DNA of 43,585 nt, taken from assembly GCA_001603685.1 (NCBI GenBank), contig LUZO01000043.1, positions 1 to 43,585 of the forward strand, in the 5' to 3' direction. This document shows positions 7,119 through 33,587 of the stretch, piece by piece. This DNA comes from Bacteroidales bacterium Bact_23 (GTDB lineage: Bacteria > Bacteroidota > Bacteroidia > Bacteroidales > Lentimicrobiaceae). Positions within the stretch are counted from its first letter, which is position 1, and the number at the start of each line of letters is the position of its first letter. The notes below the pieces were generated by a model. The model worked only from the letters and a program-made list of their open reading frames with translations. It was not told the origin of the DNA and did no database searches. The position numbers and the translations under genes are program-made.

Positions 7119-7182
7119 ATCTGTATATTTGAGTTTAATACGCTCATTAAAAACAACTTGCATTTTCGTTCGAAAAGCACGG

Positions 7183-17200: not shown

Positions 17201-17587
17201 TTACATTACAGCTTCCACCAGCATTACGGGCGGATTGTGCAGGTGCTTTTTCACTGCGCACAGATTTGCGGCATTGATTACTGCATCCTTATATTTCTCA
17301 GGGAATGAAGGGGGCAGCAATATCCTGATCCGGATGGTTCCAATGCGGCGGTTTTCGTGGTCGTATTCCATCTCCTGCTCCAGGCTGATGCCTTCGGTGG
17401 AAATTCCGCGCTGATCGCAGAACGATTTTACATAGATGCCTGCACAGGTTCCCAGCGAAACCAGAAAAAGATCGAACGGAGCCGGTGCGCTACCATCCCC
17501 TCCTCCCCTTACGGGCTGATCGGTTACAATGGTGTATCCGTTAAAATCGGCGATTACCTTCTTTTTTCCTTCAAATGTGATTTTCAT
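17201..17587 (-). CDS. OsmC family protein
   Basis: TDQP..GGDGSAPAPFDLFL.SLGTC and LCAVKK Cys pair. Confidence 0.85.
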   Translation of the reverse strand: MKITFEGKKKVIADFNGYTIVTDQPVRGGGDGSAPAPFDLFLVSLGTCAGIYVKSFCDQRGISTEGISLEQEMEYDHENRRIGTIRIRILLPPSFPEKYKDAVINAANLCAVKKHLHNPPVMLVEAVM

Positions 17588-17621
17588 GAATTCAGTCTGA
17601 AATTTATGGTTATATATTTGG

Positions 17622-18806
17622 TTACATGAATGTTAGCGACACCTCTTTAAGGAACTTCTCTTCGAGCAGGCGGGCTATCCGCTTCACCACCGTACGCCTG
17701 ATTTCAAGTTCCACGGGCAGGCTTGGATCCTGGTGGGCAATATTGATGCGCGTTCCGATAAGAAAGTGGATTTCGTCGCTTTCGAGCAGCATTTTCACAA
17801 TGCGGTCGGCGGGGCCTTTGGTAAGGCGGGTGGTGCTGTTGTACGATTTCAGGATTTCGGTTACCTTACCAAGAGTAAGAATCCCTTCGGTAACCAGATC
17901 AACGCCTTCCATCATCGAGATGGGCGGCAGATCGGGATCGTCGAAGTCGAAAGTATCTTCGATGTTGCGTTTCAACTCCCTGGCAATGATATCGGCGGTA
18001 GTGGCGCCTGAAACAATCTTCTTGCCATCGAACTTTTCAACCACCCGTGCGTACTCGGCATCCTTCTCCTCCTCGAAAGGTGGGCCGGTACAGATCAGCA
18101 TCTTTCTGGGTTCGCGGAAATAGATTACCGCGCAAGAGGTATCGTCCTTGCTCATGTAACCGTCGTTTACATGGGCCATATTCACCACCTTGTGCGCCAG
18201 TTGCTGGGCCGAGATGTTGTATTCGTGGCTCACCAGTTCCTGGACATACTGCAGGGCATTGTCGCGCCCCCATCCGAAAAGGTATTTTCCTCCGCCAAGG
18301 CCCGATTGGGCAACGCCATCGCTGAAAAAGATGATACGGTCTTCCTTTTCGGCAATAAATTCGCAGCTTTTCAGCTCTTTTCCTTCACTTTTCCCCCCTT
18401 CAAGCATCACGCAGGTCCATTCGGGTTCGAAAATCTTCTTTCCACGCATCACAATGGCCTGCGGATTGTCATACTCCAGAATTTTCACCCTCCCGTCCGA
18501 TTCTATATCCACGATGGTAAATGTGGAATAGCTCATCTTTCGCTCGCTGCATACCGGAAGGGTATTCATGATAATTTCGGCAATCCGGTTTGTTTCCTTG
18601 TGTTCGGCTGTAAAACTGAGCGCCATGGTTGCCGTAAGGGTTGCCAGCATATTGGCCTTAACGCCGTGCCCCATCCCGTCGGAGAGCACCGCAATTATCC
18701 TGTTCTCCTCACTGATGCGCCTGAAAAGGAACACGTCGCCGCATATGCGCGACTCGTGATGGAATTTGAATTCCGCATTGACTTCTATATAGAACTTGTT
18801 ATCCAT
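17622..18806 (-). CDS. SpoIIE/PP2C Ser/Thr phosphatase, hydrogenase-associated (HfsC-like)
   Basis: CGD, LSDGMGHG, FSDGV and DDTS metal-binding motifs, plus C-terminal extension (GPP..D, GATT, GVDLVTEGILTL, GTRINIAHQDP). Confidence 0.88.
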   Translation of the reverse strand: MDNKFYIEVNAEFKFHHESRICGDVFLFRRISEENRIIAVLSDGMGHGVKANMLATLTATMALSFTAEHKETNRIAEIIMNTLPVCSERKMSYSTFTIVDIESDGRVKILEYDNPQAIVMRGKKIFEPEWTCVMLEGGKSEGKELKSCEFIAEKEDRIIFFSDGVAQSGLGGGKYLFGWGRDNALQYVQELVSHEYNISAQQLAHKVVNMAHVNDGYMSKDDTSCAVIYFREPRKMLICTGPPFEEEKDAEYARVVEKFDGKKIVSGATTADIIARELKRNIEDTFDFDDPDLPPISMMEGVDLVTEGILTLGKVTEILKSYNSTTRLTKGPADRIVKMLLESDEIHFLIGTRINIAHQDPSLPVELEIRRTVVKRIARLLEEKFLKEVSLTFM

Positions 18807-18815
18807 GCGATGCGG

Positions 18816-20678
18816 TTACTTTTTGGCTGCTTTATGCGATTCGATGATAGAATTGAGCATTTGCTCGGTTTTGGCGGCGCCTTCGCCGAGCAGGAAAGCG
18901 ATTTTCTGAACCAGTTCGAAGTTTTCGTCAATCACTTCGCTTACGCGATGGATAACCTCCTCCTTACGCACTTCGGGCAGGTACATATCGCGCAGCACGG
19001 CGCCGGCAATCTTTCCCTTCTTGATGGCAAATACCGATACATTCAGCAGGCGCTCGCCCAGATGAACATCGCGGTTTACCACACTCTCGTTGGTGGAGAG
19101 TACGCCGGAAAAAAGTTTGTAAAACTGGAAAGGCAGCAGCGTTTTCAGGTCGGCGCCAACCAAACCCGGAATAATTTCGTTGATCTCCTCAGCCTCTTCG
19201 CCCAGAATATTGATAAAACTCTGATTCGACTCGATTACTTTCAGGTTTTCATCCACAATCACCACCGCGCTGGGCAGTTTCTGAAGCATGGTTGAAGTCC
19301 TTTCGAAAGCTTCCTGAACGGCCAGTTGCTCCTGCCTTGCCGACCGCTCCGACTCCATCAGCGCCTCCTGCGTTTTTGCCAGCTTTTCGTTGGTGAGCTT
19401 CAGTGTACGGATGAAATCGTGCTTGCTCCGCAGCGAGTAGGTAATGCACATATCGGTTTTGGTGAGGCCTTTGGCGACATTCTCGGCAAATTCGCGGCAC
19501 GATTCGTAGCCGCAGGCGCCGCAGCCCAGTTTATCCTCATTGCTCGACTTGCCGATGATCTTCAGAATCTCCTCTACCTTTTCCTCAGACGGTTTGGGAA
19601 GCCGCTGGTCGTTTTCGGCAAACGAAGCCCTGAAATCGGTGAGTCGGGCATGATTTGCACACGCCTTTTCCCAGGTATCCAGATTGAAATTCTTCAGTTT
19701 TTTATTGGCATAATCGGTAACCAGGGTTTTGCGCACATATTTCTTTCCGCCTTTCGATGTGCCGGGCCCCATAAGGCAGCCTTCACAGTAGAAGAGGTTG
19801 AAATGTTTGCGGATAAAGTCGATGGAGGTCTCAAATTCACGGATCGATTCCAGGATATTGACCTTACCCTCCGAAGTAATGACACTTCCCTGCATCAGGT
19901 CTTCATCCAGCCGTGCAGCCTGGAGGATTCCGTTGCTGACGGCATAGAGCGACCCCTTGTAACCCAGGGGCGGATCGAAATCGGAGTACTCAACCGTACT
20001 CTCCTTGATGTTAAATTCCGTAAAAAGCTGGCGCAACTCAACAAAAGTAAGCACGGCATCCACCCGGGCATCGCCTTCGTAGCGCAGCGCTTCCTCCTTT
20101 GCACCTATGCAGGGGCCAATGTAAACCACTTTCACCTCCTTGCCATAGAGCTGGCGCGAAATCTGCGCCGAGGCAATCATGGGGCTAACGATGGGTGCAA
20201 GGTTTCCAATCAGGTCGGGATGGAATTTTTCGATAAGCGCCACAATGGGCGGACAGTTTGTGGTGATGTAATACTTGCCGAGGAAATTGGTGAACAGCTC
20301 GCGGTATTCTGCCGCAACCAGGTCAACGCCAAACGAAACCTCATTTACATGAGAGAAACCCAGTTCGCGGATCATCCGCACAAATTTCCGGTAATCGGTA
20401 ATATCGTCGAACTCGCCTGAAATGCTGGGCGCGACGATGGCCACCACTTTCTGATCCGATGCCAGCAACTGCTTAACATCCTCACAGGAATCGCGGTAGG
20501 TAATGGCCTGTGGAGCGCACACCAGCAAGCAGCTTCCGCAGCCAATACAACGATCGTTGTTGACCACCGGGGCTTCCTGGTTCACCTTCACCTGAATGGC
20601 ATTAACCGGACAGGCGCGGACACAGGCATAGCAAATCTTGCATTTGCTTTTATCTATGCTTATAAGCGGAGCTTTCAT
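18816..20678 (-). CDS. Sensory-type (group C, HydS/HfsB-like) [FeFe]-hydrogenase domain protein with FeS and PAS domains
   Basis: 2x[4Fe-4S] N-terminus (CKICYACVRACP, CIGCGSC..CA); TTNCPP / GPCIGAKEE / YCEGCLMGPG; CGACGYESC..MC; PAS-like region; tail QKIAFLLGE. Confidence 0.85.
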   Translation of the reverse strand: MKAPLISIDKSKCKICYACVRACPVNAIQVKVNQEAPVVNNDRCIGCGSCLLVCAPQAITYRDSCEDVKQLLASDQKVVAIVAPSISGEFDDITDYRKFVRMIRELGFSHVNEVSFGVDLVAAEYRELFTNFLGKYYITTNCPPIVALIEKFHPDLIGNLAPIVSPMIASAQISRQLYGKEVKVVYIGPCIGAKEEALRYEGDARVDAVLTFVELRQLFTEFNIKESTVEYSDFDPPLGYKGSLYAVSNGILQAARLDEDLMQGSVITSEGKVNILESIREFETSIDFIRKHFNLFYCEGCLMGPGTSKGGKKYVRKTLVTDYANKKLKNFNLDTWEKACANHARLTDFRASFAENDQRLPKPSEEKVEEILKIIGKSSNEDKLGCGACGYESCREFAENVAKGLTKTDMCITYSLRSKHDFIRTLKLTNEKLAKTQEALMESERSARQEQLAVQEAFERTSTMLQKLPSAVVIVDENLKVIESNQSFINILGEEAEEINEIIPGLVGADLKTLLPFQFYKLFSGVLSTNESVVNRDVHLGERLLNVSVFAIKKGKIAGAVLRDMYLPEVRKEEVIHRVSEVIDENFELVQKIAFLLGEGAAKTEQMLNSIIESHKAAKK

Positions 20679-20705
20679 ACTTCAAAATTTTCCAGTGCTT
20701 TCAGA

Positions 20706-20996
20706 TCACACTCCCGATGAGGTCTTGCCAAAAATGCCATCGAGAATCATGATCACTTTATCTTCATTCAGCCCGGTATATTCCTTACCGTCGATATTGA
20801 TGAGCGGCCCCTTGTCGCAACTGCTGAAACAGTGAGCTCCGTGAAAATAAACCAGGTGCCTCAAGTTGCGTTCGTTCAGGTATTGCTCTATCACCTTCAC
20901 AAGTCTTTTGTTCCCTCTCGAAAAACAGGAACTGCCAAGACAGATCTGAATATCAATTCTGTTGTCCACAAATGTCGGTATTAAATCATTAACCAC
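20706..20996 (-). CDS. Thioredoxin-like [2Fe-2S] ferredoxin (HfsA-like)
   Basis: ICLGSSCFSRG ... HCFSSCDKGP; GTG start is uncertain. Confidence 0.82.
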   Translation of the reverse strand: MVNDLIPTFVDNRIDIQICLGSSCFSRGNKRLVKVIEQYLNERNLRHLVYFHGAHCFSSCDKGPLINIDGKEYTGLNEDKVIMILDGIFGKTSSGV

Positions 20997-21165
20997 CCGG
21001 CAACAGGCCGGATTTATACTTTGTCCAAATAAAGAGAGGCTATTTATATGATACTAAACTAATAATCAGCAGATTAAACCCTTTTTCATTCTTCCGGGGC
21101 ACCCTGTTCCACACTTTTATCCGTCAGTTTCAGCACAATAACCACTCATTTTTATTTGGAAGGAA

Positions 21166-21173
21166 CAAAAATA
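21166..21173 (-). promoter_or_regulatory. Putative -7 box of the leftward sensor operon
   Basis: TATTTTTG on the minus strand in the divergent intergenic region. Confidence 0.45.
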
Positions 21174-21193
21174 ATACATTTTTTAAAAAATAT

Positions 21194-21228
21194 CTGTTAA
21201 AAAATTAACAATGTTAAAAAAATAACAG
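21194..21228. promoter_or_regulatory. Tandem Rex-like operators
   Basis: CTGTTAAAAAATTAACAA (21194-21211) and ATGTTAAAAAAATAACAG (21211-21228) fit TTGTKAA-N4-TTMACAA; rex is encoded in the rightward operon. Confidence 0.7.
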
Positions 21229-21316
21229 TAATTTTATGCCAGAAATCATTTTAAGAAATGGTTTTCGGGTTTTACTCCGGTAAATCTCACATTTACACAA
21301 CCGAACAACGATTTTT

Positions 21317-21787
21317 ATGGCCGATAAGATTGATGAAATCATTGATAAGCACATCAGTGTACAGCGCGACAGTCTGTTACCCATGCTTCAGGATATCCAG
21401 AAGGAGATGGGATATCTGTCGGAGGAGTCGATAAACCGGATAGCCCGTGCGCTTGATATGCCCATCAGCAAGGTGTATGGGGTTGCCACCTTTTACGACC
21501 AGTTTCGTTTCGAAGCCAGGGGGCGCTTCCATATTCAGATTTGCCACGGCACCGCCTGCCACATCAACAACTCCGCCCGCATCATTCACGAAGCGGAACG
21601 GCTACTGAAGATCAGGCAGGGGCAGACCACACGCGACGGGATGTTCAGCATAGAGGTGGTTAACTGCATGGGTGCCTGCGGGTTATCGCCCGTGATGGCG
21701 GTAAACGACACCTACTACCACGGCATCGATCCCAACGACCTGAAAGATATTTTTGATGAATGCAAAGAAAAAATAAACCGGATATGA
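21317..21787 (+). CDS. hydC: HydC/NuoE-like [2Fe-2S] subunit of a trimeric hydrogenase
   Basis: VYGVATFYDQF, CHGTACH, CMGACGLSP. Confidence 0.9.
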   Translation: MADKIDEIIDKHISVQRDSLLPMLQDIQKEMGYLSEESINRIARALDMPISKVYGVATFYDQFRFEARGRFHIQICHGTACHINNSARIIHEAERLLKIRQGQTTRDGMFSIEVVNCMGACGLSPVMAVNDTYYHGIDPNDLKDIFDECKEKINRI

Positions 21788-23730
21788 ACGCACTGACCAC
21801 AACGGATATCAGGGAGCTTGCCGCGCATATTCTGTTGAACCCGCACTCGGACTTCGACACTGCCACCGAAGATTTTATCAGCCGGCTGAGGCGCGATACC
21901 ATTGACAAGCCGGTGATTTATGTCGGTACCGGCACCTGCGGTATGGTGGCAGGATCGCTGAAAACACTGGCTGCCATCAGGCAGTACCTTGCCGAGAAAG
22001 AGATTGATGCCGAAGTAGTTGAAGTGGGATGCATTGGCCTGTGCATTCATGAACCCATGGTGGATGTTCAGTTGCCCGGCAGACGCAGAATCGCCTTTTC
22101 GCGCATCACCGAGTCGCTGGTTGAGCCGCTGCTCGATGAAATTCTGAATTATGAAGTTCCGACGGAAAATGTGCTGGGACAGTATTCGCATCAGAACCAC
22201 GAAGCCTGGGAGAATGTAAGGCAACTGGCCGACCTCCCTTATTTCCGGCTTCAGAACCGGCTGGTTCTTCGGAACTGCGGAATCATAAACCCCTACTCCA
22301 TTGAGGAGTATATTGCACGGGGCGGATACCGCTCACTGGTAAGGGTTCTGCGCAACTACACGCCCGACAAGGTATGCGATATCGTTGAGGAGAGCGGCCT
22401 GCGCGGGCGCGGCGGCGGAGGGTTCCCCACCGGCAGAAAATGGAAAACAGCGCTCAATACCGTTGAGGAAGAGCGCTATCTGATCTGCAACGGCGATGAA
22501 AGCGATCCCGGAGCATTTATGGACAGGGCGATTTTCGAAGGCGACCCCCATAAACTGATTGAGGGAATTGCTATTGCGGCATACAGCATCAATGCAAAGA
22601 AGGCTTATGTATATGTCCGCGCCGAATACACCTTCGCCGTTGAACGGCTGAAACGGGCCATTGAACAGGCCACCGAAGCCGGTCTTCTGGGGCACAACAT
22701 CCTGAACAGCGGATTCAGCCTTCAGGTTTTGGTGAGGGAAGGCGCCGGCGCGTTTGTCTGCGGCGAAGAAACAGCACTGATTGCCAGCATCGAAGGAAAG
22801 CGGGGCACTCCGGGGCCAAAGCCGCCGTTCCCCTCCATCCGCGGGCTGTTCGGCAAACCAACCGTTGTCAACAATGTGGAAACACTGGCCAACATACCGG
22901 CCATCATCGAAAACGGGCCCAGTTGGTTCAGCTCAATGGGAACAGCAACTAGCAAAGGCACAAAGGTATTTGCCCTTGCCGGAAAGATATCCATCACCGG
23001 GCTTGCTGAAGTAACCATGGGCACCTCGCTCAAGGATCTGGTTTATATCATTGCCGGCGGTGTCAGGGATGGCAAAATGCTGAAAGCCATTCAGCTTGGA
23101 GGCCCCTCGGGAAGCTGTTTACCAGAAAAAAGCCTTGATGTACTAATTGATTATGAGTCTCTTAAAGAAGCAGGTACCATTATGGGATCGGGAGGACTTG
23201 TTGTTATGGACGAAGATACCTGCATGGTGGACATCGCCAAATTCTTTACCGATTTTCTGCAGCGCGAGAGTTGCGGAAAGTGCATTCCCTGCCGCGAAGG
23301 CTCAAGGCGAATGCATGAGATTCTGGAAAACATCACCCGAAGGCCGGTAAATGAAACCAGCCACGAAACCCTGCAGCGGTTCAAGGGGGTAATGCAACTC
23401 GAGAATCTTGCCGAGGTTATCAGGGATACCTCCCTCTGCGGACTCGGACAAACAGCGCCAAATCCCCTGCTCAGCGCCCTGAAGTATTTCAGGGAAGAGT
23501 TTGAAGAGCATATCTTCGACCGGAAATGCCGCGCAGGAGTATGTAAGGACCTGAAAGTCTATTACATAGATATTGAAAAATGCACCGGCTGTATGGTTTG
23601 TGCAAAGAAATGTCCAACCACGGCCATTATCGGATCATCGCGCACCCCGCATTTCATTGTGGAAGACAAATGCATCGGCTGCGGCATATGCTTCGATGTG
23701 TGCAAATTTGTTGCCGTTTATGTTAAATGA
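21784..23730 (+). CDS. hydB: HydB/NuoF-like FMN/NAD-binding diaphorase subunit
   Basis: ATG 21784 overlaps the hydC stop (ATGA); GRGGGGFPTG, DESDPGAFMDR, FVCGEETAL, GGPSG, ESCGKCIPCREG, SLCGLG; C-terminal 2x[4Fe-4S]. Confidence 0.92.
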   Translation: MNALTTTDIRELAAHILLNPHSDFDTATEDFISRLRRDTIDKPVIYVGTGTCGMVAGSLKTLAAIRQYLAEKEIDAEVVEVGCIGLCIHEPMVDVQLPGRRRIAFSRITESLVEPLLDEILNYEVPTENVLGQYSHQNHEAWENVRQLADLPYFRLQNRLVLRNCGIINPYSIEEYIARGGYRSLVRVLRNYTPDKVCDIVEESGLRGRGGGGFPTGRKWKTALNTVEEERYLICNGDESDPGAFMDRAIFEGDPHKLIEGIAIAAYSINAKKAYVYVRAEYTFAVERLKRAIEQATEAGLLGHNILNSGFSLQVLVREGAGAFVCGEETALIASIEGKRGTPGPKPPFPSIRGLFGKPTVVNNVETLANIPAIIENGPSWFSSMGTATSKGTKVFALAGKISITGLAEVTMGTSLKDLVYIIAGGVRDGKMLKAIQLGGPSGSCLPEKSLDVLIDYESLKEAGTIMGSGGLVVMDEDTCMVDIAKFFTDFLQRESCGKCIPCREGSRRMHEILENITRRPVNETSHETLQRFKGVMQLENLAEVIRDTSLCGLGQTAPNPLLSALKYFREEFEEHIFDRKCRAGVCKDLKVYYIDIEKCTGCMVCAKKCPTTAIIGSSRTPHFIVEDKCIGCGICFDVCKFVAVYVK

Positions 23731-23756
23731 CCTTAATGCCTTGAAACACTGTAGAT

Positions 23757-25481
23757 ATGAGCTTCCCGATAGAAGTAAACAATAAAACGATTATTGCCCG
23801 GCGCGGTGAAACCATTCTTGAGGCACTTGAGCGCAACGGCATAAAGGTACCCACGCTTTGCCACATGCCGGGACTGAATCCCTCGGGCTCGTGCCGGATG
23901 TGTGTGGTGGAAGTGGAAGGCAAGCCCAACCTTATTACCGCCTGCTCCTACCCCGTTGAAGAGTGGATGAAGATAAAGACGCACTCGCCGCGGGTGGTAA
24001 ATGCCCGGAAAACCAATGTTGAGCTGCTGCTGAGCAACCACCCTGACGATTGCCTCTATTGCGAAAGGAACGGCAACTGCGAGCTTCAGAACTTTGCCGA
24101 GCAACTGAATGTGCGAGAGCGCCGTTTTGTCGGCAAAAAGAACAAATACAAATCCGACCCTTCGGGCTCGAGCATCATCCGCGACCCCGCCAAATGCATT
24201 TTGTGCGGCCGCTGCGTCAGAACCTGCGAAGAGGTGATAGGCGCCGCCACGCTGGGATTTATCGGCAGAGGAAACAAAACCATCATCGGGCCGGCATTCA
24301 ACAAACAGATGAACCTTTCGAGCTGCATAACCTGCGGACAGTGCATTATGGCATGCCCCACAGGCGCCCTGCACGAAAAGCGCCACTCTTCCGACCTGCA
24401 GAATGCACTTCACAACAAGGATATTCATGTGGTTATACAGTACTCCCCCACCATCTCAATCAGCCTGGCCGAAGAGTTTGGACTTAAGGCGGGAAAGGAC
24501 ATCAACGGTCTTTTGAATGCCGCACTCCGCAAAACAGGCTTCGACAAGGTTTTCGATACCGCTTTCGGCGTTGACCTCTACATTATGGAGCTGGCTGCAG
24601 AATTTGAGCACCGTCTGAAGAACAACCTTCAACTGCCTATGTTCAACAGCGACTGTCCCGCCTGGATAAAATACATGGAGCAGTGGCAGCCCGATCTGAT
24701 TCCGAATGTATCCACCTGCAAATCGCCGCAGCAGATGCTGGGCGCCATCATTGCCGGCTATTACAGCAAAACCTACCACATCAACATTGATAACCTCTAC
24801 ACCGTTTCGGCCATGCCGTGCACGGCCAAGAAATTCGAAGCACAGCGCGAACAGATGACCATTAAGGGCATCAGCGATGTGGACGCCGTACTCACCACCC
24901 GCGAAATTGCTCAGTTTATCCGCCTGAATGGCATTGATATCCATCAGGGCGATCACGAGCTACCCGACATTCCGTTCCATGTCCACAGTTCGGCAGGCAA
25001 ACTGGTAAGCGTGAGCGGCGGGGTTACCGAAGCGTTAATCCGCACCCTGCATTACAAGCTAACCGGAAAGGAGTTTGACCACAAACGCATCAGCGAACTG
25101 CGGGTTAACAAGGATTGCAAGGAAGTAAAGCTGAAAATCGGCGATTACAAGCTTGGTTTTGCTGCCGTAAGTACCGTTAATCAGGCGGCACGGCTTATTG
25201 AAGAGATCAAGAACGGCAGAAACGACCTCCATTTCATCGAGGTTATGGCTTGTCCGGGCGGATGCGTAAACGGCGGCGGCCAGCCCATTGTTGACGATCC
25301 TTCAGCCGTAAAAGCCAGAATTAAGGCAATTTACGACCAGGATGACAAGGAACCGATCAGAATGGCTCACAAGAACCCGGCTATCATCGAGCTTTACAGG
25401 GAATTTCTGGGCGAGCCGCTGAGCGAACAAAGCATGAAACTTCTGCACACCTCATACAAAAAGAGGGAAGTGTCGTTGTAA
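23757..25481 (+). CDS. hydA: [FeFe]-hydrogenase large subunit, group A3 architecture with a divergent active site
   Basis: 2Fe-2S, His-ligated 4Fe-4S (HPDDCLYC..C) and 2x[4Fe-4S]; H-cluster motifs FNSDCPAW, MPCTAKKFE, EVMACPGGCVNGGGQP; C-terminal LLHTSY. Confidence 0.9.
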   Translation: MSFPIEVNNKTIIARRGETILEALERNGIKVPTLCHMPGLNPSGSCRMCVVEVEGKPNLITACSYPVEEWMKIKTHSPRVVNARKTNVELLLSNHPDDCLYCERNGNCELQNFAEQLNVRERRFVGKKNKYKSDPSGSSIIRDPAKCILCGRCVRTCEEVIGAATLGFIGRGNKTIIGPAFNKQMNLSSCITCGQCIMACPTGALHEKRHSSDLQNALHNKDIHVVIQYSPTISISLAEEFGLKAGKDINGLLNAALRKTGFDKVFDTAFGVDLYIMELAAEFEHRLKNNLQLPMFNSDCPAWIKYMEQWQPDLIPNVSTCKSPQQMLGAIIAGYYSKTYHINIDNLYTVSAMPCTAKKFEAQREQMTIKGISDVDAVLTTREIAQFIRLNGIDIHQGDHELPDIPFHVHSSAGKLVSVSGGVTEALIRTLHYKLTGKEFDHKRISELRVNKDCKEVKLKIGDYKLGFAAVSTVNQAARLIEEIKNGRNDLHFIEVMACPGGCVNGGGQPIVDDPSAVKARIKAIYDQDDKEPIRMAHKNPAIIELYREFLGEPLSEQSMKLLHTSYKKREVSL

Positions 25482-25499
25482 GATTAAAAAACCAATGCT

Positions 25500-27518
25500 A
25501 TGAGTATCGAAGAAATAACCCCGAAACGCCAGCTGGTTACCACCATCAGAGAACGGTGCCGGGTATGTTATACCTGCGTGCGCGAGTGTCCTGCCAAGGC
25601 CATCAAAATTATAAACGGCCAGGCGGAAGTTATTGCCGAACGATGCATTGGATGCGGGAACTGTGTAAAGGTCTGCAGTCAGAATGCCAAGGTTTTCCGC
25701 AAAGAGATTGATAAGGTTAAAGAGCTGATTGGCAGTGGCAATAAAGTGGCCGCCATTGTCGCTCCCAGTTTTCCGGCCGAGTTTGCCGAGATTAAGAATC
25801 ATCGCCTGCTGGTTTCCATAATCCGGGAGCTTGGATTCCACTATGTAGCCGAGGTTTCATTCGGCGCCGACCTGGTTGCCGGCGAATACAAAAAGATCCT
25901 TCAGTCGAAGCAGTTGCCGCCTGCCATTTCATCCGATTGTCCGGCAATCGTAAAATACATCGAGTATTATCATCCCAATCTGGTGGATTCGCTGGCGACC
26001 ATCGTTTCGCCTATGGTGGCCATGACCCGGGTAATGCGCAAAAAGTACGGCAGCAACCTTAAGGTTGTATTTATCGGCCCCTGCATTGCGAAAAAGGATG
26101 AATCGCCCGAAGTGGATGCTGCCCTCACCTACCGGGAACTCAGGGAGATGATCAGTCAGCATGGTCTGAAACCGGCGGATGTAATCCCAACCGACTTCGA
26201 TCCGCCAATGGGCGGCAGGGGCGCCATTTTTCCGGTGAGCAGGGGGCTGCTGAATACCGTGGGCGTGAAGGAGGATATTTTTGAGCGGAATGTCATTGTT
26301 GCCGAAGGAAGAAGCGACTTTCAGGAAGCCATCCGTGAATTTGAGAACGGCCAGATCTCGCAGGAGCATCTGGAACTGTTGTGCTGCGAAGGCTGCATCA
26401 TGGGGCCGGGAATGTCGCCCTATCCGTTTCTTTCATCACTCAGCCGGAGATTCAGAAAACGCGCCAGCGTTAGCGACTATGTCATCCACAAACTGGAGGA
26501 GATGGATATGGAGCAATGGGAGAAAGATTATGAACTCTACTCCACCATCGACCTGTACTGCGAATTTACCAGACGCGATATGCGCCTCGACCGGCCGGTA
26601 AGCAAGGAGATTGAAGAGGTACTGAATAAAATGGGAAAATTCGGCCCTCAGGATCACCTCGATTGCGGCGCCTGCGGCTATGAATCGTGCGAGGAGCACG
26701 CCATCGCCATCATCCGCGGCCTGGCCGAGCATGAAATGTGCCTCCCCTACACCATCGAAAAACTGCACAACTACATCGACGAGCTGAACATATCGAACGA
26801 GAAACTGGCCAGCGCCCAGGAGGCATTGCGGCAATCGGAGAAACTGGCCGGAATGGGACAGCTCTCGGCCGGAATTGCCCACGAACTGAATAACCCACTG
26901 GGGATCATCACTATGTACAGCAACATCCTGAAGGATGAAGCCGCACCCGACGACCCGATCAGAAACGACCTTGAGCTGATAGCCGAGCAGGCGGAACGCT
27001 GCAAGAAAATCGTGGGCGGACTGCTGAACTTTGCACGCAAAAACCAGGTAAATTATGAGGAAAACGACATAAACCGCCTGATGGAACACTCGATCAGCTC
27101 GGTGGTACTACCCGAAAATATTAAGATATCACTCGAATCCAACATTATGAATCCTGTAATCAGGCTCGATTTCGACCAGATGACACAGGTATTCACCAAC
27201 CTGCTGAAAAACGCCGGCGAAGCAATGCCCGAAGAGGGAGGCACCATCAGCATAATCATGAGTGATACCGACGACAATGTGACCATAAACATAGCCGATA
27301 CCGGATCGGGAATTGAGGAGGAGAACCACAACAAGCTGTTTACGCCGTTTTTCACCACCAAACCCATTGGTAAAGGCACCGGACTGGGGCTGCCTATTAT
27401 ATATGGTATAGTAAAGATGCACAAAGGCAAAATCTCATTCAACTCGAATGCTGACAAATCCAGAGGACCAACCGGCACCACCTTCACCATTGTACTTCCC
27501 AGATATGGGATGAGTTAA
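25500..27518 (+). CDS. [FeFe]-hydrogenase-like sensor fused to a histidine kinase (group C, kinase-linked)
   Basis: 2x[4Fe-4S]; SSDCPA / GPCIAKKDE / ELLCCEGCIMGPG; CGACGYESC..MC; AHELNNPL H-box, NLLKNA, DTGSGI, FTPFFTTK, GTGLGL; no TM segment. Confidence 0.9.
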   Translation: MSIEEITPKRQLVTTIRERCRVCYTCVRECPAKAIKIINGQAEVIAERCIGCGNCVKVCSQNAKVFRKEIDKVKELIGSGNKVAAIVAPSFPAEFAEIKNHRLLVSIIRELGFHYVAEVSFGADLVAGEYKKILQSKQLPPAISSDCPAIVKYIEYYHPNLVDSLATIVSPMVAMTRVMRKKYGSNLKVVFIGPCIAKKDESPEVDAALTYRELREMISQHGLKPADVIPTDFDPPMGGRGAIFPVSRGLLNTVGVKEDIFERNVIVAEGRSDFQEAIREFENGQISQEHLELLCCEGCIMGPGMSPYPFLSSLSRRFRKRASVSDYVIHKLEEMDMEQWEKDYELYSTIDLYCEFTRRDMRLDRPVSKEIEEVLNKMGKFGPQDHLDCGACGYESCEEHAIAIIRGLAEHEMCLPYTIEKLHNYIDELNISNEKLASAQEALRQSEKLAGMGQLSAGIAHELNNPLGIITMYSNILKDEAAPDDPIRNDLELIAEQAERCKKIVGGLLNFARKNQVNYEENDINRLMEHSISSVVLPENIKISLESNIMNPVIRLDFDQMTQVFTNLLKNAGEAMPEEGGTISIIMSDTDDNVTINIADTGSGIEEENHNKLFTPFFTTKPIGKGTGLGLPIIYGIVKMHKGKISFNSNADKSRGPTGTTFTIVLPRYGMS

Positions 27519-27562
27519 AAATCAATTAATTAACTAAAGAAAAATCTGAATTTCCATACAAA

Positions 27563-27958
27563 ATGACCAAAATGAAAAAGACTGTTTTAATTGTTGACGA
27601 TGACATGGATTATCTGTTCCAGATGAAGCTGAAAGTGGAACAGTTTGGTTTCGAAACGATTACGGCTGATGGCCAGAAAGAGGCAGAATCCATTATCGAA
27701 ACCGTCAGGCCCGACCTTGCCATTCTCGACCTGATGATGGAGAGCGAAGACAGCGGTTTTATCCTGGCCTACAAAATCAAGCGTAAATATCCGGATGTGC
27801 CCATCATTATTGCAACAGCGGTAACTGCCGAAACCGGAATGAATTTCGATATCAAGTCGGATGAAAACAAACAGTGGATCAAGGCCGACCTTTTTCTCGA
27901 CAAGGGAATCAGGGCCGATCAACTGCAGAGAGAAATCAATAAATTGTTAAAAATCTGA
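27563..27958 (+). CDS. Single-domain response regulator (receiver only)
   Basis: VDDD, ILDLMME (phospho-Asp), ATA, LDK; no output domain; alternative start at 27572. Confidence 0.88.
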   Translation: MTKMKKTVLIVDDDMDYLFQMKLKVEQFGFETITADGQKEAESIIETVRPDLAILDLMMESEDSGFILAYKIKRKYPDVPIIIATAVTAETGMNFDIKSDENKQWIKADLFLDKGIRADQLQREINKLLKI

Positions 27959-27961
27959 GAA

Positions 27962-29098
27962 ATGGCGTCGTATAAAGTGCTGGTAGTTGACGATGAACCG
28001 GGAATCCGCATGGGTACCAGGCGAATTCTTCAAAACTTCAAGGTTGACTATCCGTTTATGGATGAATTTATAGAGTACATTGTTCTGGAGGCGGCCACAG
28101 GCGAAGAGGCCATCGAGATTATCGACAGCGAAATGCCCGATATCATCCTCCTCGACAATAAACTGCCCGGCATTCAGGGCATTGAGGTGCTGGAGTATGT
28201 CAAGAAAAAGCTTTACGACATTGTGGTTGTGATGATTACCTCATACGCATCGCTTGAACTTGCCGTAAAAGCCACCCGCGACGGAGCTTACGACTTCATC
28301 CCGAAACCGTTTACCCCGCAGGAGCTGAGAGGCTCGCTCGAAAACATCACCAAACAGCTCTTCCTGAAGCGGATGACTCAAAAGCTGAATAAGGAAGGCA
28401 AACTTATCCGCTTCCAGTTCCTTTCGGTACTGTCGCACGAACTGAAAGCCCCGCTGAATGCCATTGAAGGCTACCTTAACATCATGAAGGAGAAGCAGTT
28501 TGGCGATAATGTGGACAGCTACAAAGATATGATCGACCGCTCGCTAGAAAGGATAAGCGGCATGCGCGGGCTGATTATGGACCTGCTCGACCTCACGAAA
28601 ATCGAATCGGGGAAACCCACCCAGAACCTGCAGAAAGTTGACATCACCAAAATTGCCGGAACCTCCATTGATACCATGCGCCCCTACGCCATTCAGAAAG
28701 ATGTGGATGTCTATCTGAACACCAAAGAGAGCGTTATTATGGAGGCTGATGCAAAAGAGATTGAAATTATTTTCAACAATCTGATATCCAATGCGATAAA
28801 ATACAACAAACAGGGCGGGCGCGTGGATGTTTTCATCCATCGGGACGATAAAAACATCAGGCTCCAGGTGTCAGATTCAGGCATCGGCATGTCGGAAGAA
28901 GAGCAGAGTTCGCTTTTCCAGGATTTCGTACGCATTAAAAATCCAAAAACCAAAAACATCACCGGTTCCGGACTGGGGCTTTCAATCATCAAAAAGATTA
29001 CAGAGATGTATCATGGTGATATTGAAGTGAATAGCGTACCTGATCAGGGAACAACCTTTACTATAATCCTCCCGCTGGAACGAACTGCAATAAACTGA
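27962..29098 (+). CDS. Hybrid receiver-histidine kinase (REC-HisKA-HATPase)
   Basis: VDDEP, LLDNKLP, IPKPF; SHELKAPL, NLISNAIKY, DSGIGM, GSGLGL. Confidence 0.9.
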   Translation: MASYKVLVVDDEPGIRMGTRRILQNFKVDYPFMDEFIEYIVLEAATGEEAIEIIDSEMPDIILLDNKLPGIQGIEVLEYVKKKLYDIVVVMITSYASLELAVKATRDGAYDFIPKPFTPQELRGSLENITKQLFLKRMTQKLNKEGKLIRFQFLSVLSHELKAPLNAIEGYLNIMKEKQFGDNVDSYKDMIDRSLERISGMRGLIMDLLDLTKIESGKPTQNLQKVDITKIAGTSIDTMRPYAIQKDVDVYLNTKESVIMEADAKEIEIIFNNLISNAIKYNKQGGRVDVFIHRDDKNIRLQVSDSGIGMSEEEQSSLFQDFVRIKNPKTKNITGSGLGLSIIKKITEMYHGDIEVNSVPDQGTTFTIILPLERTAIN

Positions 29099-29109
29099 AA
29101 CACTGAACA

Positions 29110-29730
29110 ATGAAAAAACTACCCGATAAAACAGTAGAAAGGCTGAGCCAGTACCGCCGGGCGCTGATGAACTATTACTCCGGCGGCAAGCACCACATCT
29201 TTTCGCACGAAATAGCCAACCTGCTTCATATCACGGCTGTACAGGTACGGCGCGACATCATGCTGATCGGTTACACCGGTACCCTGAGGCAGGGCTACGA
29301 TGTAAAGGAGCTGATCGACATCATCGGCAAGATCATCGACACCCGCGAAGGACAAAAGGTTGCCGTAATCGGCATTGGTAACCTCGGGAGGGCCATTATC
29401 GGTTACTTTAGCGGAAAACGCACAAAACTTTCGATAGTAGCCGCTTTCGACAGCAATCCCGAAAAGGTTGACCGCATCTATGCGGGAGTCCACTGCTACC
29501 ACAGCAGCCAGATGGCGGAAGTTATCAGGCGCGAAGATATCTCCATCGCGGTAATCTCGGTGCCCGGCGATGCGGCCGGACAGGTGGCCGAAGAGCTGAT
29601 TATGGCCGGAATCAGGGGAATTCTGAACTTCTCGCCCAAGGCACTGAATGTTCCTGCGCATGTCTATCTGCAGGAGTACGATATGATTACCAGTCTGGAA
29701 AAAATTGCCTATTTCGTGAAAAAACCGTAA
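29110..29730 (+). CDS. rex: Redox-sensing transcriptional repressor Rex
   Basis: TVERLSQY, QVRRD..G.TG..GYDV, GIGNLGRA, GIRGILNFSP. Confidence 0.92.
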   Translation: MKKLPDKTVERLSQYRRALMNYYSGGKHHIFSHEIANLLHITAVQVRRDIMLIGYTGTLRQGYDVKELIDIIGKIIDTREGQKVAVIGIGNLGRAIIGYFSGKRTKLSIVAAFDSNPEKVDRIYAGVHCYHSSQMAEVIRREDISIAVISVPGDAAGQVAEELIMAGIRGILNFSPKALNVPAHVYLQEYDMITSLEKIAYFVKKP

Positions 29731-29751
29731 AACTTCTGTCAGGATAGAGCG

Positions 29752-30693
29752 ATGAAGATATATTATGATCTGGATTCCATCACTTCAATCCGCAATCCGG
29801 TAGTGACTACCGGCTCGTTCGACGGTGTCCACATCGGTCATAAAACCATTTTGAACCGGTTGCGCGAAATCGCTTCCAGCATTGGCGGCGAATCGGTACT
29901 CATCACCTTTCACCCGCATCCGCGAAAAGTGCTGTTTCCCGACACCGCCGGCAAAACGCTGCTGCTGATCAATTCACAGCGCGAAAAGGTGGAGTTGCTC
30001 CGCAAAACGGGGCTCGACCACCTGATCATCCTGAAATTCACCCGGGAATTCTCGCAGATAAGCTCCATCGACTTTATCCGGAACATTCTGGTCGGGAAAC
30101 TGAATGCGAGGAAGGTGGTAATCGGCTTCAACCACCATTTCGGCCACAACCGCGAAGGAAATTTCGACTACCTGTACGAGCTGGGGCAATATTACAATTT
30201 TGGCGTCGAAGAGATTCCCGAGCAGGACATCCACAACGAAACGGTCAGCTCAACGCTGATACGCAAGGCGCTGCTCGAAGGCAAAATACAAAGGGCAAAC
30301 GCCTACCTCGACCATCACTACATCATTGTCAGCGAGCTGTTTCCAGGCAGCGAAACCTGCCGCAGCATCAACTTCCCGACATTGCGCGTAAAGATAACCG
30401 AAGAGAACAAGCTCGTTCCCTGCGACGGGGTTTATGCCGTGAATGTGCTGGTTGACGGCGAATTCTACAAAGGCATTCTGAATATCAAAAACTCGCTTCC
30501 GCTCGAAATCAGGGACATCAACGCGATAAACATCGACATCCATCTGTTTGGCTACGACAGCGATCTTACCGGAAAAACGGCAACCGTATTCTTTGCCAAA
30601 CGGATCAGAGAGGAGTTGCAGTTCAACGATGCAGACTCTATGGTCAAACAGCTTCAGTCCGACCTGGCCGAAGTGGAAGAACTAATATACTAA
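29752..30693 (+). CDS. ribF: RibF-like FAD synthetase (adenylyltransferase domain intact, riboflavin kinase domain degenerate)
   Basis: GSFDGVHIGH, TFHPHP, VSSTLIR present; kinase half reads FPTLR (normally PTAN) and IDIH (normally EVH). Confidence 0.78.
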   Translation: MKIYYDLDSITSIRNPVVTTGSFDGVHIGHKTILNRLREIASSIGGESVLITFHPHPRKVLFPDTAGKTLLLINSQREKVELLRKTGLDHLIILKFTREFSQISSIDFIRNILVGKLNARKVVIGFNHHFGHNREGNFDYLYELGQYYNFGVEEIPEQDIHNETVSSTLIRKALLEGKIQRANAYLDHHYIIVSELFPGSETCRSINFPTLRVKITEENKLVPCDGVYAVNVLVDGEFYKGILNIKNSLPLEIRDINAINIDIHLFGYDSDLTGKTATVFFAKRIREELQFNDADSMVKQLQSDLAEVEELIY

Positions 30694-30703
30694 GACCATC
30701 ATT

Positions 30704-31486
30704 ATGAGCAGTTCAGGCCCCATAAAACTCACCTTTCTCGGAACCGGAACCTCCATCGGGGTGCCGGTAATCGCCTGCAACTGCCCGGTGTGCAAATCAT
30801 CTGACCCGCGCGATAAACGCTTTCGTACTTCGGCAATGGTAAATGTTGACAATCAGAACATTGTGATTGACTGCGGCCCCGATTTCCGGTTTCAGATGCT
30901 GAAGCAGAATGTGGAAGATATAGAGGCGGTGGTTTTCACGCACGAGCACCGCGACCACATTGCCGGACTCGATGATGTACGCGCATTCAACTACATCCTG
31001 AACAAAAACATCCCCATATACGGATCGGCGAATGTGATGGAAGCGATAAAAACGGAATTCCCCTATATTTTTACCGAAACCCGTTTTTTCGGCGCGCCTC
31101 AGCTTACCATTCATGAAATCGACGATCAGGCATTCAGCATCGGCCCTACTGAAATTTTACCCATCAGGGTATTGCACAACAAACTGCCGGTTTTTGGCTA
31201 CCGCATCGGCGGCCTCACCTACATCACCGATGCCAGCATGATTCCCGACGAGGAGAAACACAAGATTTACAAGTCGAAGGTGTTGGTTCTTAACGCGCTG
31301 CGAAACTCAAAGCATATCTCGCACCTTTCGCTGAGCGAAGCCCTTCAGTTGATCGAAGAACTGAAACCCGAACGGGCGTACCTTACCCACATCAGCCACT
31401 TTCTGGGGCTTCATGCCGAAGTGGAGAAAAAGCTGCCCGGGCATATCAGGCTCGCCTACGACAACCTGATTGTTGAAATAAGCTGA
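30704..31486 (+). CDS. PhnP/YycJ-like metallo-beta-lactamase-fold hydrolase
   Basis: LGTGTSIGVP..C.C..C, IDCGPDFR, THEHRDH, YITD, LTHISH. Confidence 0.9.
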   Translation: MSSSGPIKLTFLGTGTSIGVPVIACNCPVCKSSDPRDKRFRTSAMVNVDNQNIVIDCGPDFRFQMLKQNVEDIEAVVFTHEHRDHIAGLDDVRAFNYILNKNIPIYGSANVMEAIKTEFPYIFTETRFFGAPQLTIHEIDDQAFSIGPTEILPIRVLHNKLPVFGYRIGGLTYITDASMIPDEEKHKIYKSKVLVLNALRNSKHISHLSLSEALQLIEELKPERAYLTHISHFLGLHAEVEKKLPGHIRLAYDNLIVEIS

Positions 31487-31544
31487 TTGCGTTATTTAGA
31501 CGATATTTATAAAGATGGATATGATTTTCAAGGCCGGAAAATAC

Positions 31545-31552
31545 TATCTTTG
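31545..31552 (+). promoter_or_regulatory. Putative -7 box for hydG
   Basis: TATCTTTG 45 nt upstream of the ATG. Confidence 0.5.
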
Positions 31553-31597
31553 CAGTAGAAAATCCACTCAGTATAAACCACTGAAAATCAATATATA

Positions 31598-33034
31598 ATG
31601 ATATTTACACCTGAAAAATGCCGCATTCCGGATCAGAGGATGAAGCCTTTTATCGATCCTGATGAATTGTGGGACATCCTGAATGAAACTAAACCGGATA
31701 AACAGGCAGTCCGCGATGTGATTGCCAAATCGCTTGAGAAAAACAGGCTGACCCTCAGGGAGACAGCCATGCTGATCAATGCCAACGACCCTGAACTGAT
31801 TGAAGAGATTAAGGAAGGTGCCCGCGAGCTGAAGAAGCGCGTTTATGGTAACCGTATTGTGTTGTTTGCTCCGCTTTACATCGGAAATAAATGCACCAAC
31901 AACTGCAAATACTGCGGATTCAGGGCATCGAACAAGGAGGCCATCCGCAAAACCCTGACCGACCAGGAGATTGTGCGCGAGGTTGAGGCGCTGGAAGATA
32001 ACGGCCAGAAGCGCCTTATCCTCGTTTACGGCGAACATCCCGAATACAATGCCGAATACATTGCCGATAATGTAAGGCTGGTGTACGGAATCAAGAAAGG
32101 TCCGGGCGAAATCCGCAGGGTAAACATCAATGCCGCTCCTCTCGATATCGACGGATTCCGTATCGTGAAAGAGGCCGGCATCGGCACCTACCAGATTTTC
32201 CAGGAAACCTACCACCCCGAGATTTACAAAACCTACCATCTGGGCGGCAAGAAAAGGGATTTCAACTACAGGCTCACTTCGCTCGACCGTGCTCAGGAAG
32301 CCGGCCTCGACGATGTGGGAATCGGCGCTTTGTTCGGACTGTACGACTGGCGCTACGAGGTAATGGGCCTCATCCGCCACACCAACCATCTGGAAGCCTG
32401 CTATCATGTCGGTCCGCACACCATCTCCTTCCCGCGCATTCAGAACGCCTCAATGCTTGATCTTGGGAAAGATTATACGGTTAACGACGAAGATTTTGCA
32501 CGGCTGGTTGCCATTCTCAGGCTTGCAGTCCCCTACACCGGTATGATTCTTACGGCAAGGGAGAATCCCAAACTCAGGCACGAAGTAATTCAGTTCGGCG
32601 TATCGCAGATCGACGGCGGCACCAAACTGGAGCTGGGCGCCTATTCCGACTCGCTGAATCAGGAGCAGGACCTCAACCGCGAGCAGTTCCAGATCAACGA
32701 CGACCGCTCACTCAATGAGGTAATCGATGAGCTCCTCGAAAACGATTACCTCCCATCCTTCTGCACCGCATGTTACCGCCGTGGCAGAACCGGTGAGCAC
32801 TTCATGGAGTTTTCGGTTCCCGGATTCATCAAGCGCTTCTGCTCACCCAATGCCATGCTTACCCTGGCCGAATACCTCGAAGACTACGCTCCCGCCGATA
32901 CAAAAGCTGCCGGATGGAAGGTAATCGAAAAGAACCTGAACGACCTGCGAGAGCAAACCGATGAGAAAAATGCAGCCGAACTGAAAAGCAGACTCGACAG
33001 GGTGAAGGCAGGCGAACGCGACATCTATTTCTGA
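31598..33034 (+). CDS. hydG: [FeFe]-hydrogenase H-cluster radical SAM maturase HydG
   Basis: FAPLYIGNKCTNNCKYC, FQETYH, GPHTISFPR, C-terminal SFCTACYR..RTG..FC auxiliary-cluster motif. Confidence 0.95.
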   Translation: MIFTPEKCRIPDQRMKPFIDPDELWDILNETKPDKQAVRDVIAKSLEKNRLTLRETAMLINANDPELIEEIKEGARELKKRVYGNRIVLFAPLYIGNKCTNNCKYCGFRASNKEAIRKTLTDQEIVREVEALEDNGQKRLILVYGEHPEYNAEYIADNVRLVYGIKKGPGEIRRVNINAAPLDIDGFRIVKEAGIGTYQIFQETYHPEIYKTYHLGGKKRDFNYRLTSLDRAQEAGLDDVGIGALFGLYDWRYEVMGLIRHTNHLEACYHVGPHTISFPRIQNASMLDLGKDYTVNDEDFARLVAILRLAVPYTGMILTARENPKLRHEVIQFGVSQIDGGTKLELGAYSDSLNQEQDLNREQFQINDDRSLNEVIDELLENDYLPSFCTACYRRGRTGEHFMEFSVPGFIKRFCSPNAMLTLAEYLEDYAPADTKAAGWKVIEKNLNDLREQTDEKNAAELKSRLDRVKAGERDIYF

Positions 33035-33059
33035 TTCATCACGACTTAATTAACAGGAT

Positions 33060-33317
33060 ATGAAAGAAACCAGAATCATCGGACTACTCATCAGAGATAG
33101 GATTAAAGAAGCAGGTAAACTGCAGCTCGCCCTGAACAAATACGCTCACCTGATAAAATCAAGGCTCGGTTTTCATGAGCTGAGCGAAGACACATGCAGC
33201 AGAATGGGTTTCATCATTCTTCAGCTTACCGGTAAAAGTGATGAATGGCAAGCCTTTGAAACCGAGATTTCAGAAATTGGCGGAGTAGAAATGCAGAAAA
33301 TGTCGTTTGAACTTTAA
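33060..33317 (+). CDS. Small ACT-like hydrogenase-associated protein (TM1266-like), copy 1
   Basis: IIGLLIRDR..LQ.AL..Y..IKSRLGFHE..G.IIL pattern; directly after hydG. Confidence 0.7.
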   Translation: MKETRIIGLLIRDRIKEAGKLQLALNKYAHLIKSRLGFHELSEDTCSRMGFIILQLTGKSDEWQAFETEISEIGGVEMQKMSFEL

Positions 33318-33329
33318 TACGAAAACAAA

Positions 33330-33587
33330 ATGAAAAGGCGTATTCTTGGCATCAATGTGGGCAACCGTGACGAAGTTGCCGAAAAAGTTCAAAAGGTGCT
33401 GACTACTTTTGGCTGCTCCATTCGCACCCGTCTCGGACTTCATGAAACGGATGACGACCACAGCGAACCGGGCGGATTGATTCTGCTTGAGCTGATCGGC
33501 GATGAAAACGAATGGAACAAGCTCGAAAAAGAGCTTTCAGCCATTGAGCACTGCGAAACAAAAAGAATGGATTTCAGCGGAAAGTGA
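33330..33587 (+). CDS. Small ACT-like hydrogenase-associated protein (TM1266-like), copy 2
   Basis: ILGINVGNR..VQKVLTTFGCSIRTRLGLHE..GLILLEL; paralog of the previous ORF. Confidence 0.75.
   Translation: MKRRILGINVGNRDEVAEKVQKVLTTFGCSIRTRLGLHETDDDHSEPGGLILLELIGDENEWNKLEKELSAIEHCETKRMDFSGK

Follow-up and report, generated by a model that had tools for sequence, protein, structure and literature searches.

A divergently transcribed Bacteroidales locus with an altered HydABC trimer, two H-domain sensors and Rex is a candidate H2 and redox signalling module

Contig LUZO01000043.1 of the anaerobic Bacteroidales bacterium Bact_23 (assembly GCA_001603685.1, 3.7 Mb, 97.9% complete; contig C39 of the genome) was analysed over its whole length of 43,585 nucleotides, termed the window. 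Between positions 17,201 and 33,587 it carries two divergent gene arms that encode a HydABC-type trimer, two further H-domain proteins (HydHK, fused to a histidine kinase, and HydS-PAS), a receiver relay, a PP2C phosphatase and the repressor Rex (Table 1). A sequence-only reading had proposed this locus as a candidate H2 and redox signalling hub built on three non-canonical H-cluster proteins. Pfam and NCBIfam searches of the open reading frames (ORFs) of the window found every gene named there at its given place, all three H-domain proteins deviate from the group A pattern, and a regulatory role is supported. Judged from sequence, there is about an even chance that the locus serves, under repression by Rex, as a signalling module for H2 and the NADH/ferredoxin state and is not the H2 producer of the cell.

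HydA of the window aligns one to one with the residue numbering of CpI, its best CpI match being the C299D variant, and differs from CpI by C299D, E279L, F417V, G418S and M424T. All accessory iron–sulfur (Fe–S) ligands and the four H-cluster cysteines (C300, C355, C499 and C503) are present, and K358, M353, M497 and S323-P324-Q325 are retained. The group A proton relay C299-E279-S319-E282 is incomplete, with D299 and L279 standing next to retained S319 and E282. In CpI, the E279A and E279Q variants have <1% activity and C299D has 30–80% (PMC6226526).

Relatives of the locus were collected by a search with HydHK, which matched in 22 of the 24 other genomes of the genus, 118 of 301 Bacteroidales genomes and 14 of 201 genomes of the phylum. 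Stretches of ∼19.5 kb were fetched for 20 genus matches and for 80 of the remaining 116 order matches, picked for long contigs; layout counts are lower bounds owing to contig ends. The core hydB-hydA-kinase-REC-REC/kinase recurs in 94 of 100 fusion-bearing Bacteroidales loci (window included), hence the gene order is not a matter of chance and is conserved in relatives. The full two-sensor form, with HydS, PP2C and rex added, is present in 51 of 100 loci (34 of 79 outside the genus). A second layout is devoid of rex and HydS (33 of 96 loci have the kinase core without either); in many cases it adds further receivers on the upstream side and hydG-hydF-hydE on the downstream side. Several loci have rex without HydS in the fetched stretch. 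The fixed core does not extend to ribF, MBL, osmC, hydG or the TM1266-like ORFs. The placing of hydG in the locus was correct for the window, but its link is loose, with hydG inside the fetched stretch in 29 of the 51 full-layout loci and in 12 of the 34 outside the genus.

Across the HydA proteins of 96 of these loci (four that are split, cut or absent were left out), the four cysteines are invariant and E279 is found in 40, C299 in 53 and K358 in 70. Position 358, where the lysine is needed for the 2Fe site, is non-basic in 11 of the 96, and positions 279 and 299 show nine and eight other residues, respectively. A group D-type alternative relay through position 423 was rejected, the residue being valine in the window and glutamate in 3 of the 96. 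HndD of the window genome, used as a query in 92 genomes, has an orthologue at ≥73% in 56. The relay is broken in 51 of the 56 loci of HndD-bearing genomes (the window genome included), whereas it is intact in 32 of the 33 loci of genomes without HndD, and it is broken in all seven genus loci that lay outside this search. In 18 intact-type genomes the locus HydA is the only match, and is therefore presumably the working enzyme there. Over 22 pocket positions, parsimony assigns 287 changes to 47 Hnd/Rex-type loci versus 13 to 32 others; the 19 Fe–S cysteines and His95 of HydA show no change in either. Tree lengths of the Hnd-type loci are 3.1–3.4 times those of the others for HydA, HydB and HydC, and 1.5–1.6 times for the two kinases.

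All 12 of the more distant loci with an upstream hydA retain E279, C299 and K358 together with G248 of HydB, which argues that the intact relay is ancestral. Relay loss marks a single derived clade, also marked by G248S in HydB; rex, HydS, G248S and HydA decay coincide on this same clade. Since the Hnd/Rex type is one clade in the HydB tree, its link with relay loss counts as a single event and not as statistical proof. Within the genus, hydA has a ratio of nonsynonymous to synonymous substitution rates of 0.02–0.04, indicative of strong purifying selection, which rules out a decaying pseudogene. All of the 49 closest database homologues, among them that of the window itself, have D299/L279, M353 and a basic residue at position 358. 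Together, the selection and the fixed D299/L279 pair indicate a pocket that was altered and then held, rather than one that is rotting.

The sequence-only reading had regarded this HydABC as a divergent one, and canonical paralogues indeed lie elsewhere in the genome, which holds eight H-domain genes. On contig C166 (2941–16600), two hydrogenase operons stand in tandem: a non-bifurcating-type HydABC is followed by DRTGG, an anti-sigma-type kinase, a HydS-like protein, DRTGG, PHP, an ATPase and hndBCDA, the non-hydrogenase labels coming from reading the sequences. The HydA motifs of the HndABCD-type operon are canonical, the second HydABC has a short HydB with the non-bifurcating marks of Losey 2020, and each operon has two Rex-like palindromes upstream (16532/16574 and 12745/12762). 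Contig C104 (7349–15302) encodes an iron-type alcohol dehydrogenase-like protein, NfnA-like and Rex-like proteins, a ferredoxin, HydS, PP2C, a second ferredoxin and a group B hydrogenase; its HydS has the canonical lysine and CX3C, and a Rex-like site lies at 15284. The maturase genes hydE and hydF are on contigs C313 and C224. Given these other hydrogenases, HydABC of the window is not needed as the sole H2 enzyme. Elsewhere on C104 (28–6106), a NuoE/NuoF-like pair with a 1281-residue subunit (2Fe-2S, DPD-II/FAD and molybdopterin-oxidoreductase-like domains) is another Bfu-family complex.

The genes hydC, hydB and hydA form one operon with NuoE, NuoF and M3 domain sets. HydB bears the bifurcation marks of Losey 2020 (A/E232, M234, F367 and GGPSG) as A252, M254, F332 and residues 447–451, its FMN/NADH motifs are retained, and the cysteines of the C-terminal 2x[4Fe-4S] region (C608–C648) are all present. 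Against the four of a full N-terminal [2Fe-2S] site, its N-terminal domain has three cysteines (60, 91 and 95), as in some solved homologues and in intact-type loci. Position 248 is serine in 60 of 63 Hnd-type loci versus glycine in 31 of 31 others. By its offset from Cys91, S248 corresponds to S96 of Aquifex NuoF, where a redox-dependent flip of the E95–S96 bond controls when NAD+ is released (PMC6560083). By analogy, G248S may have a functional effect in HydB, which we offer as a conjecture.

Two other roles of the trimer need to be weighed. It is unlikely that HydABC is a working (bifurcating) hydrogenase with a proton path rewired from Asp299, controlled by the sensors and Rex in the manner of ordinary hyd operons. 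Although the three bifurcation marks of HydB, the retained K358, M353, M497 and S323-P324-Q325, the fixation of D299/L279 in 49 of 49 close homologues, the strong purifying selection and the activity left by C299D in CpI would all suit such an enzyme, the many residues at 279 and 299 reveal no common substitute path, the group D glutamate is rare and not in the window, position 358 has lost its basic residue in some loci, and CpI hardly tolerates replacement of E279. It is quite unlikely that HydABC serves metabolism as an H2-independent NADH/ferredoxin conduit (diaphorase-like, with 4Fe-4S clusters only) merely left in its ancestral operon. Clade-wide, only Fe–S ligands and core FMN residues are invariant, a 2Fe site is hardly feasible in lineages without K358, M353 and P354, and HydB has acquired a NuoF-like serine at the peptide-flip position; yet in nearly all loci the gene just before the kinase is still hydA, the 2Fe-pocket residues are retained in the genus, and a new acceptor domain or partner gene was not seen in the loci.

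HydHK is composed of 2x[4Fe-4S], an H-domain without C299 and E279 (D146 and Y130 take their places), a Cx2Cx4Cx16C cluster (C389/392/397/414) and HisKA/HATPase domains. Its cluster cysteines C147, C195, C296 and C299 are found in 99 of 99 loci, Lys198 in 98 and Asp146, at the C299 position, in 95; the last two H-cluster cysteines are spaced CX2C, and all kinase boxes are retained in both layouts. HydS-PAS, in turn, has Ala193 at the K358-equivalent position. At least 56 of 57 loci have no lysine there, and the H-cluster cysteines of the protein are variable (C298 in 42 of 57, C190 in 53 of 57), with the accessory Fe–S cysteines nearly fixed. The two proteins match by profile over 473 columns at 42% identity, coiled coil included, and HydS-PAS groups with Bacteroidales kinase sensors and not with the C104 HydS (85/95 support, rough bootstrap). 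HydS-PAS is thus likely to be a degenerate duplicate of the sensor half of the kinase. With its lysine missing and its H-cluster cysteines varying, it is a poor candidate for an H2 sensor; it is likely an H2-blind copy, and HydHK is the H2-sensor candidate of the two. The earlier proposal that both sensor types sense H2 is accordingly not upheld. Its PAS-type label is borderline; the Fe–S motifs are present, and the PAS domain itself scores 21.5 bits, just under the Pfam cut-off of 22.6 (E = 2.5e-4 with the C-terminal part alone). A complex prediction for HydA with the sensor half of HydHK returned a score of 0.00, which is no answer and was used neither way.

Relay and phosphatase residues are strictly kept. 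In 97 of 97 loci, the receiver-only protein has D56 and K114 and the REC-kinase has D65, H159 and its N and G boxes; the metal-binding aspartates of PP2C (24, 43, 163, 221 and 222) are present in 54 of 54. The C-terminal ∼165 residues of PP2C (window 17622–18120) have no Pfam match and share invariant motifs in 54 of 54 loci, and are a possible sensor-docking domain.

The shared Rex boxes of the sequence-only reading correspond to two 18-bp palindromes that abut ahead of hydC (21194–21211 and 21211–21228, 17 bp apart) and are predicted to be Rex sites. The textbook Rex box differs from them at two symmetric positions. The DNA-binding helix and GxGxxG motifs of Rex are conserved in 61 loci. With three mismatches, palindromes precede hydC in 53 of 58 rex loci; where rex and HydS are both absent, the count is 10 of 33. 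A matrix was trained on 55 sites, all from loci outside the genus with the window's own site as seed pattern. It exceeds 15 bits in 20 of 20 rex loci of the genus versus 2 of the 33 loci that lack both genes. Among its 13 best genome-wide matches, seven lie upstream of hydrogenase-linked operons, in four intergenic regions (that of the window locus, those of the two C166 operons and that of the C104 adh-rex-hydS operon), compared with none for 30 shuffled matrices. A plain pattern count (8 versus 2.4) is not relied on, the pattern having been picked once the site was known. Other Rex-like sites lie at C132:19828, C237:1583 and C322:4922, and the ORFs behind them read, from sequence only, as phosphate acyltransferase, glutamate dehydrogenase and a 2-oxoacid dehydrogenase subunit.

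These co-located and co-regulated parts could also act separately (the kinase relay, the ferredoxin–HydS–PP2C arm and Rex forming no integrated circuit), which we consider improbable. In favour of separate action, His/Asp phosphoryl groups are not substrates of Ser/Thr phosphatases, some of the loci counted above have the kinase core with neither rex nor HydS and others have rex but no HydS in the fetched stretch, and a second ferredoxin–HydS–PP2C set lies on C104. Against it, HydS-PAS groups with the kinase sensors, not with the C104 HydS, and has the coiled coil of those sensors, and four traits (rex, HydS, G248S and HydA decay) mark one clade.

For the signalling module, we propose the following course of cofactor binding, electron transfer to the kinase and phosphotransfer. 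HydHK would bind a full H-cluster and turn over H2 slowly, like TmHydS, and a redox change would reach His461 through the coiled coil. Phosphate would then pass to the receiver-only protein and to the REC domain of the second kinase, whose partner regulator would be encoded elsewhere. HydABC would still bind FMN and NADH and carry its whole Fe–S chain; in the genus it probably holds the 2Fe site with the proton exit cut, so that it would equilibrate with NADH and ferredoxin and set the redox state of the sensor, directly or via a ferredoxin. HydS-PAS would be an H2-blind Fe–S copy of the sensor coupled to the PP2C phosphatase, and the output would run through the relay and this phosphatase arm. 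At high NADH, as the motif distribution suggests, Rex would derepress the window locus and the other hydrogenase operons, the latter also being the likely targets of the module, and H2, ferredoxin and NADH signals would be integrated in one circuit. A bolder version, which we put forward only tentatively and as rather less than probable, holds that a whole bifurcating-type HydABC became a pseudo-enzyme sensor arm after a second hydrogenase took over catalysis; with only its flavin/Fe–S wire left, it would feed the NADH/ferredoxin potential into the H-cluster kinase, and the H2-blind duplicate would drive the opposing phosphatase, which would let the cell gauge H2 against its own redox state.

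Several observations weigh against the signalling module. The Hnd/Rex type, one clade in the HydB tree, amounts to four changes on the kinase tree, with which an independent-pairs test cannot reach significance, and five loci of the Hnd-bearing type retain an intact relay. The catalytic motifs of the Hnd paralogue were read in the window genome alone. C299D by itself leaves CpI substantially active, and the fixation of D299/L279, M353 and basic 358 in 49 homologues also fits a redesigned active enzyme. One genome of the genus (G003; 95% complete, 10 contigs) has a D299/L279 HydA, and the H-domain genes found in it are the three of the locus only; it retains hydE, hydF and hydG, and the lack of another group A hydrogenase among its finds speaks for a working enzyme. 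In TamHydS, other proton paths exist (PMC10407848), and the C-terminal cluster gave no response to H2 (PMC13104023), so that the path proposed from the H-cluster to the kinase is tentative. No regulator that could serve as the output was seen in the locus, and the relay of the window is without a DNA-binding one.

The full combination, which the sequence-only reading thought possibly undescribed, has in its layout already been published. Zheng 2024 (PMC11406978) describes bfuT-bfuCBA-bfuT clusters, with two bfuT genes, in Perlabentimonas gracilis, Tenuifilum thalassicum and Williamwhitmania taraxaci; in its BfuABC sub-type V, bfuC-bfuB-bfuA is followed by a kinase-bearing group C protein and a second bfuT lies upstream of bfuC. 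The window shares this arrangement, with HydS-PAS upstream of hydC and HydHK downstream of hydA. Unlike our reading, that paper treats BfuABC as a bifurcating hydrogenase; the terms 'Rex' and 'proton transfer' are absent from its main text, and its passages on these clusters mention neither a decayed HydA pocket nor a second sensor without the lysine nor the operator. Kinase-fused group C, trimeric group A and Rex also occur together in Elusimicrobia lineage V, Ignavibacterium and Caldithrix (bioRxiv 10.1101/765248), a second sensor, phosphatase arm and HydA decay not being described in the passages on those systems. What is added here is that HydA lost its relay clade-wide over a frozen Fe–S chain, that the duplicate sensor is without the lysine, and the predicted operator. 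A literature search, with most subscription journals outside it, found none of these three, and neither a relay-less Bacteroidota HydABC nor a Bacteroidota Rex/hydrogenase regulon, and the supplement of PMC11406978 (motif logos, Fig. S7) may show altered BfuA motifs.

HydHK and HydS-PAS resemble TmHydS (M2f) and the C1/C3 proteins of HydDB in having 2x[4Fe-4S], an H-domain without C299/E279 and Cx2Cx4Cx16C, beside a group A hydrogenase (PMC8163306, PMC10055695, PMC5037454). HydHK differs from these by Asp instead of Ala at the C299 position, the CX2C spacing of its last pair and a direct kinase fusion without PAS, and HydS-PAS by the missing K358-equivalent lysine. Kinase fusions of this kind are placed under C3 by Zheng 2024 (PMC11406978), the kinase-linked name in HydDB being C1. 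As in hfsABCD of Thermoanaerobacterium and HydS-HydA2 of Ruminococcus albus, a ferredoxin-like gene, a PAS-type H-domain protein and a Ser/Thr phosphatase stand in a row, but osmC and not an hfsD-like hydrogenase follows the phosphatase of the window; the C104 set has such a hydrogenase and is the closer match (PMC11837493). Subunits, Fe–S and FMN/NADH motifs and bifurcation marks are those of the bifurcating HydABC of T. kivui (8A6T), A. woodii (7Q4V) and T. maritima (7P5H), from which the window trimer differs in the HydA proton relay and gas pocket, the three N-terminal HydB cysteines and G248S. The 'C1 + Hnd' pair of Petrimonas mucosa was considered as an equivalent and set aside, its gene count pointing to a C166-type operon instead.

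HydDB lists the role of kinase- and phosphatase-linked group C enzymes as undetermined, and how group C [FeFe]-hydrogenases pass on their signal is stated to be unknown (PMC11376134). An H-domain-fused kinase with two adjoining relay partners offers a direct read-out of H2 via autophosphorylation. With HydHK in 118 of 301 Bacteroidales genomes, such sensing may matter for fermenters that switch between H2-producing routes. The HydA pockets of the clade also form a natural gradient that runs from intact to stripped over an unchanged Fe–S chain, in which the HydABC scaffold can be tested without H2 catalysis.

Table 1. Features of the locus in window coordinates.
Feature	Position	Strand	Remarks
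osmC	17201–17587	−	directly after the PP2C gene
PP2C/SpoIIE-type Ser/Thr phosphatase (HfsC-like)	17622–18806	−	Pfam SpoIIE
HydS-PAS (H-domain/PAS protein)	18816–20678	−	2x[4Fe-4S], degenerate H-domain, Cx2Cx4Cx16C cluster, coiled coil, weak PAS
Thioredoxin-like [2Fe-2S] ferredoxin (HfsA-like)	20706–20996	−	four Cys in 50/50 loci
Tandem 18-bp palindromes, predicted Rex operator	21194–21228		divergent intergenic region
HydC (NuoE-like, 2Fe-2S)	21317–21787	+	four Cys invariant
HydB (NuoF-like FMN/NADH subunit)	21760–23730	+	bifurcation marks, G248S, 3-Cys N-terminal thioredoxin-like domain
HydA (M3-type group A H-domain protein)	23757–25481	+	residue numbering as in CpI
HydHK (group C-type H-domain sensor fused to HisKA/HATPase)	25500–27518	+	His461
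Single-domain receiver (REC-only)	27563–27958	+	Asp56
REC-histidine kinase	27962–29098	+	Asp65, His159; without DNA-binding domain
Rex, NADH/NAD+-sensing repressor	29110–29730	+	NCBIfam 197.9 bits, cut-off 126
RibF (FMN/FAD synthesis)	29752–30693	+	usual rex follower in the two-sensor layout
MBL hydrolase	between ribF and hydG	+	111 bp ahead of hydG
hydG maturase and two TM1266/CPF_0552-like ORFs	31598–33587	+	hydG 509.6 bits, cut-off 312

The two arms part from a 320-bp gap, and gaps within them are ≤44 bp as far as the MBL gene. The true start of the ferredoxin probably lies downstream of the listed GTG. The small TM1266/CPF_0552-like proteins after hydG (33060–33587) are a tandem pair, 37% identical. 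No Rfam match was obtained, and a scan for sigma-70 promoters and terminators gave chance levels (22 versus 20.9 and 14 versus 22.5). Coverage of the locus and its neighbours is thin and patchy in three soil metatranscriptome contig sets, all of one study, and contigs do not show transcription or its level.

Among the relatives, hydB and hydA form a single 1178-residue frame in locus L016 and are fragmented in L054, with assembly error possible in either. L039 and L041 have inserts between hydA and the kinase, that of L039 being a four-gene ABC transporter of phosphate-binding type. In a more distant class (L116, L118–L125 and L128) a second REC comes after the relay, together with all or the beginning of a non-bifurcating-type HydABC, which hints that the choice between bifurcating and NADH-only enzymes may be made by the relay. 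The sole HydHK match in a scan of named genomes is a Lentimicrobium metagenome-assembled genome (83% identity), and no plasmid-borne copy was found at E ≤ 1e-100.

Ten kilobases from the locus, a pyruvate:ferredoxin oxidoreductase gene (3582–7163) is divergent from a dihydroorotate dehydrogenase-like gene (7565–8578), and a Rex-like site of >9 bits is absent ahead of this pair. At 41044–43107 the window encodes a 687-residue protein that joins a trypsin-like peptidase to a non-specific endonuclease domain, an architecture known from defence-associated proteins.

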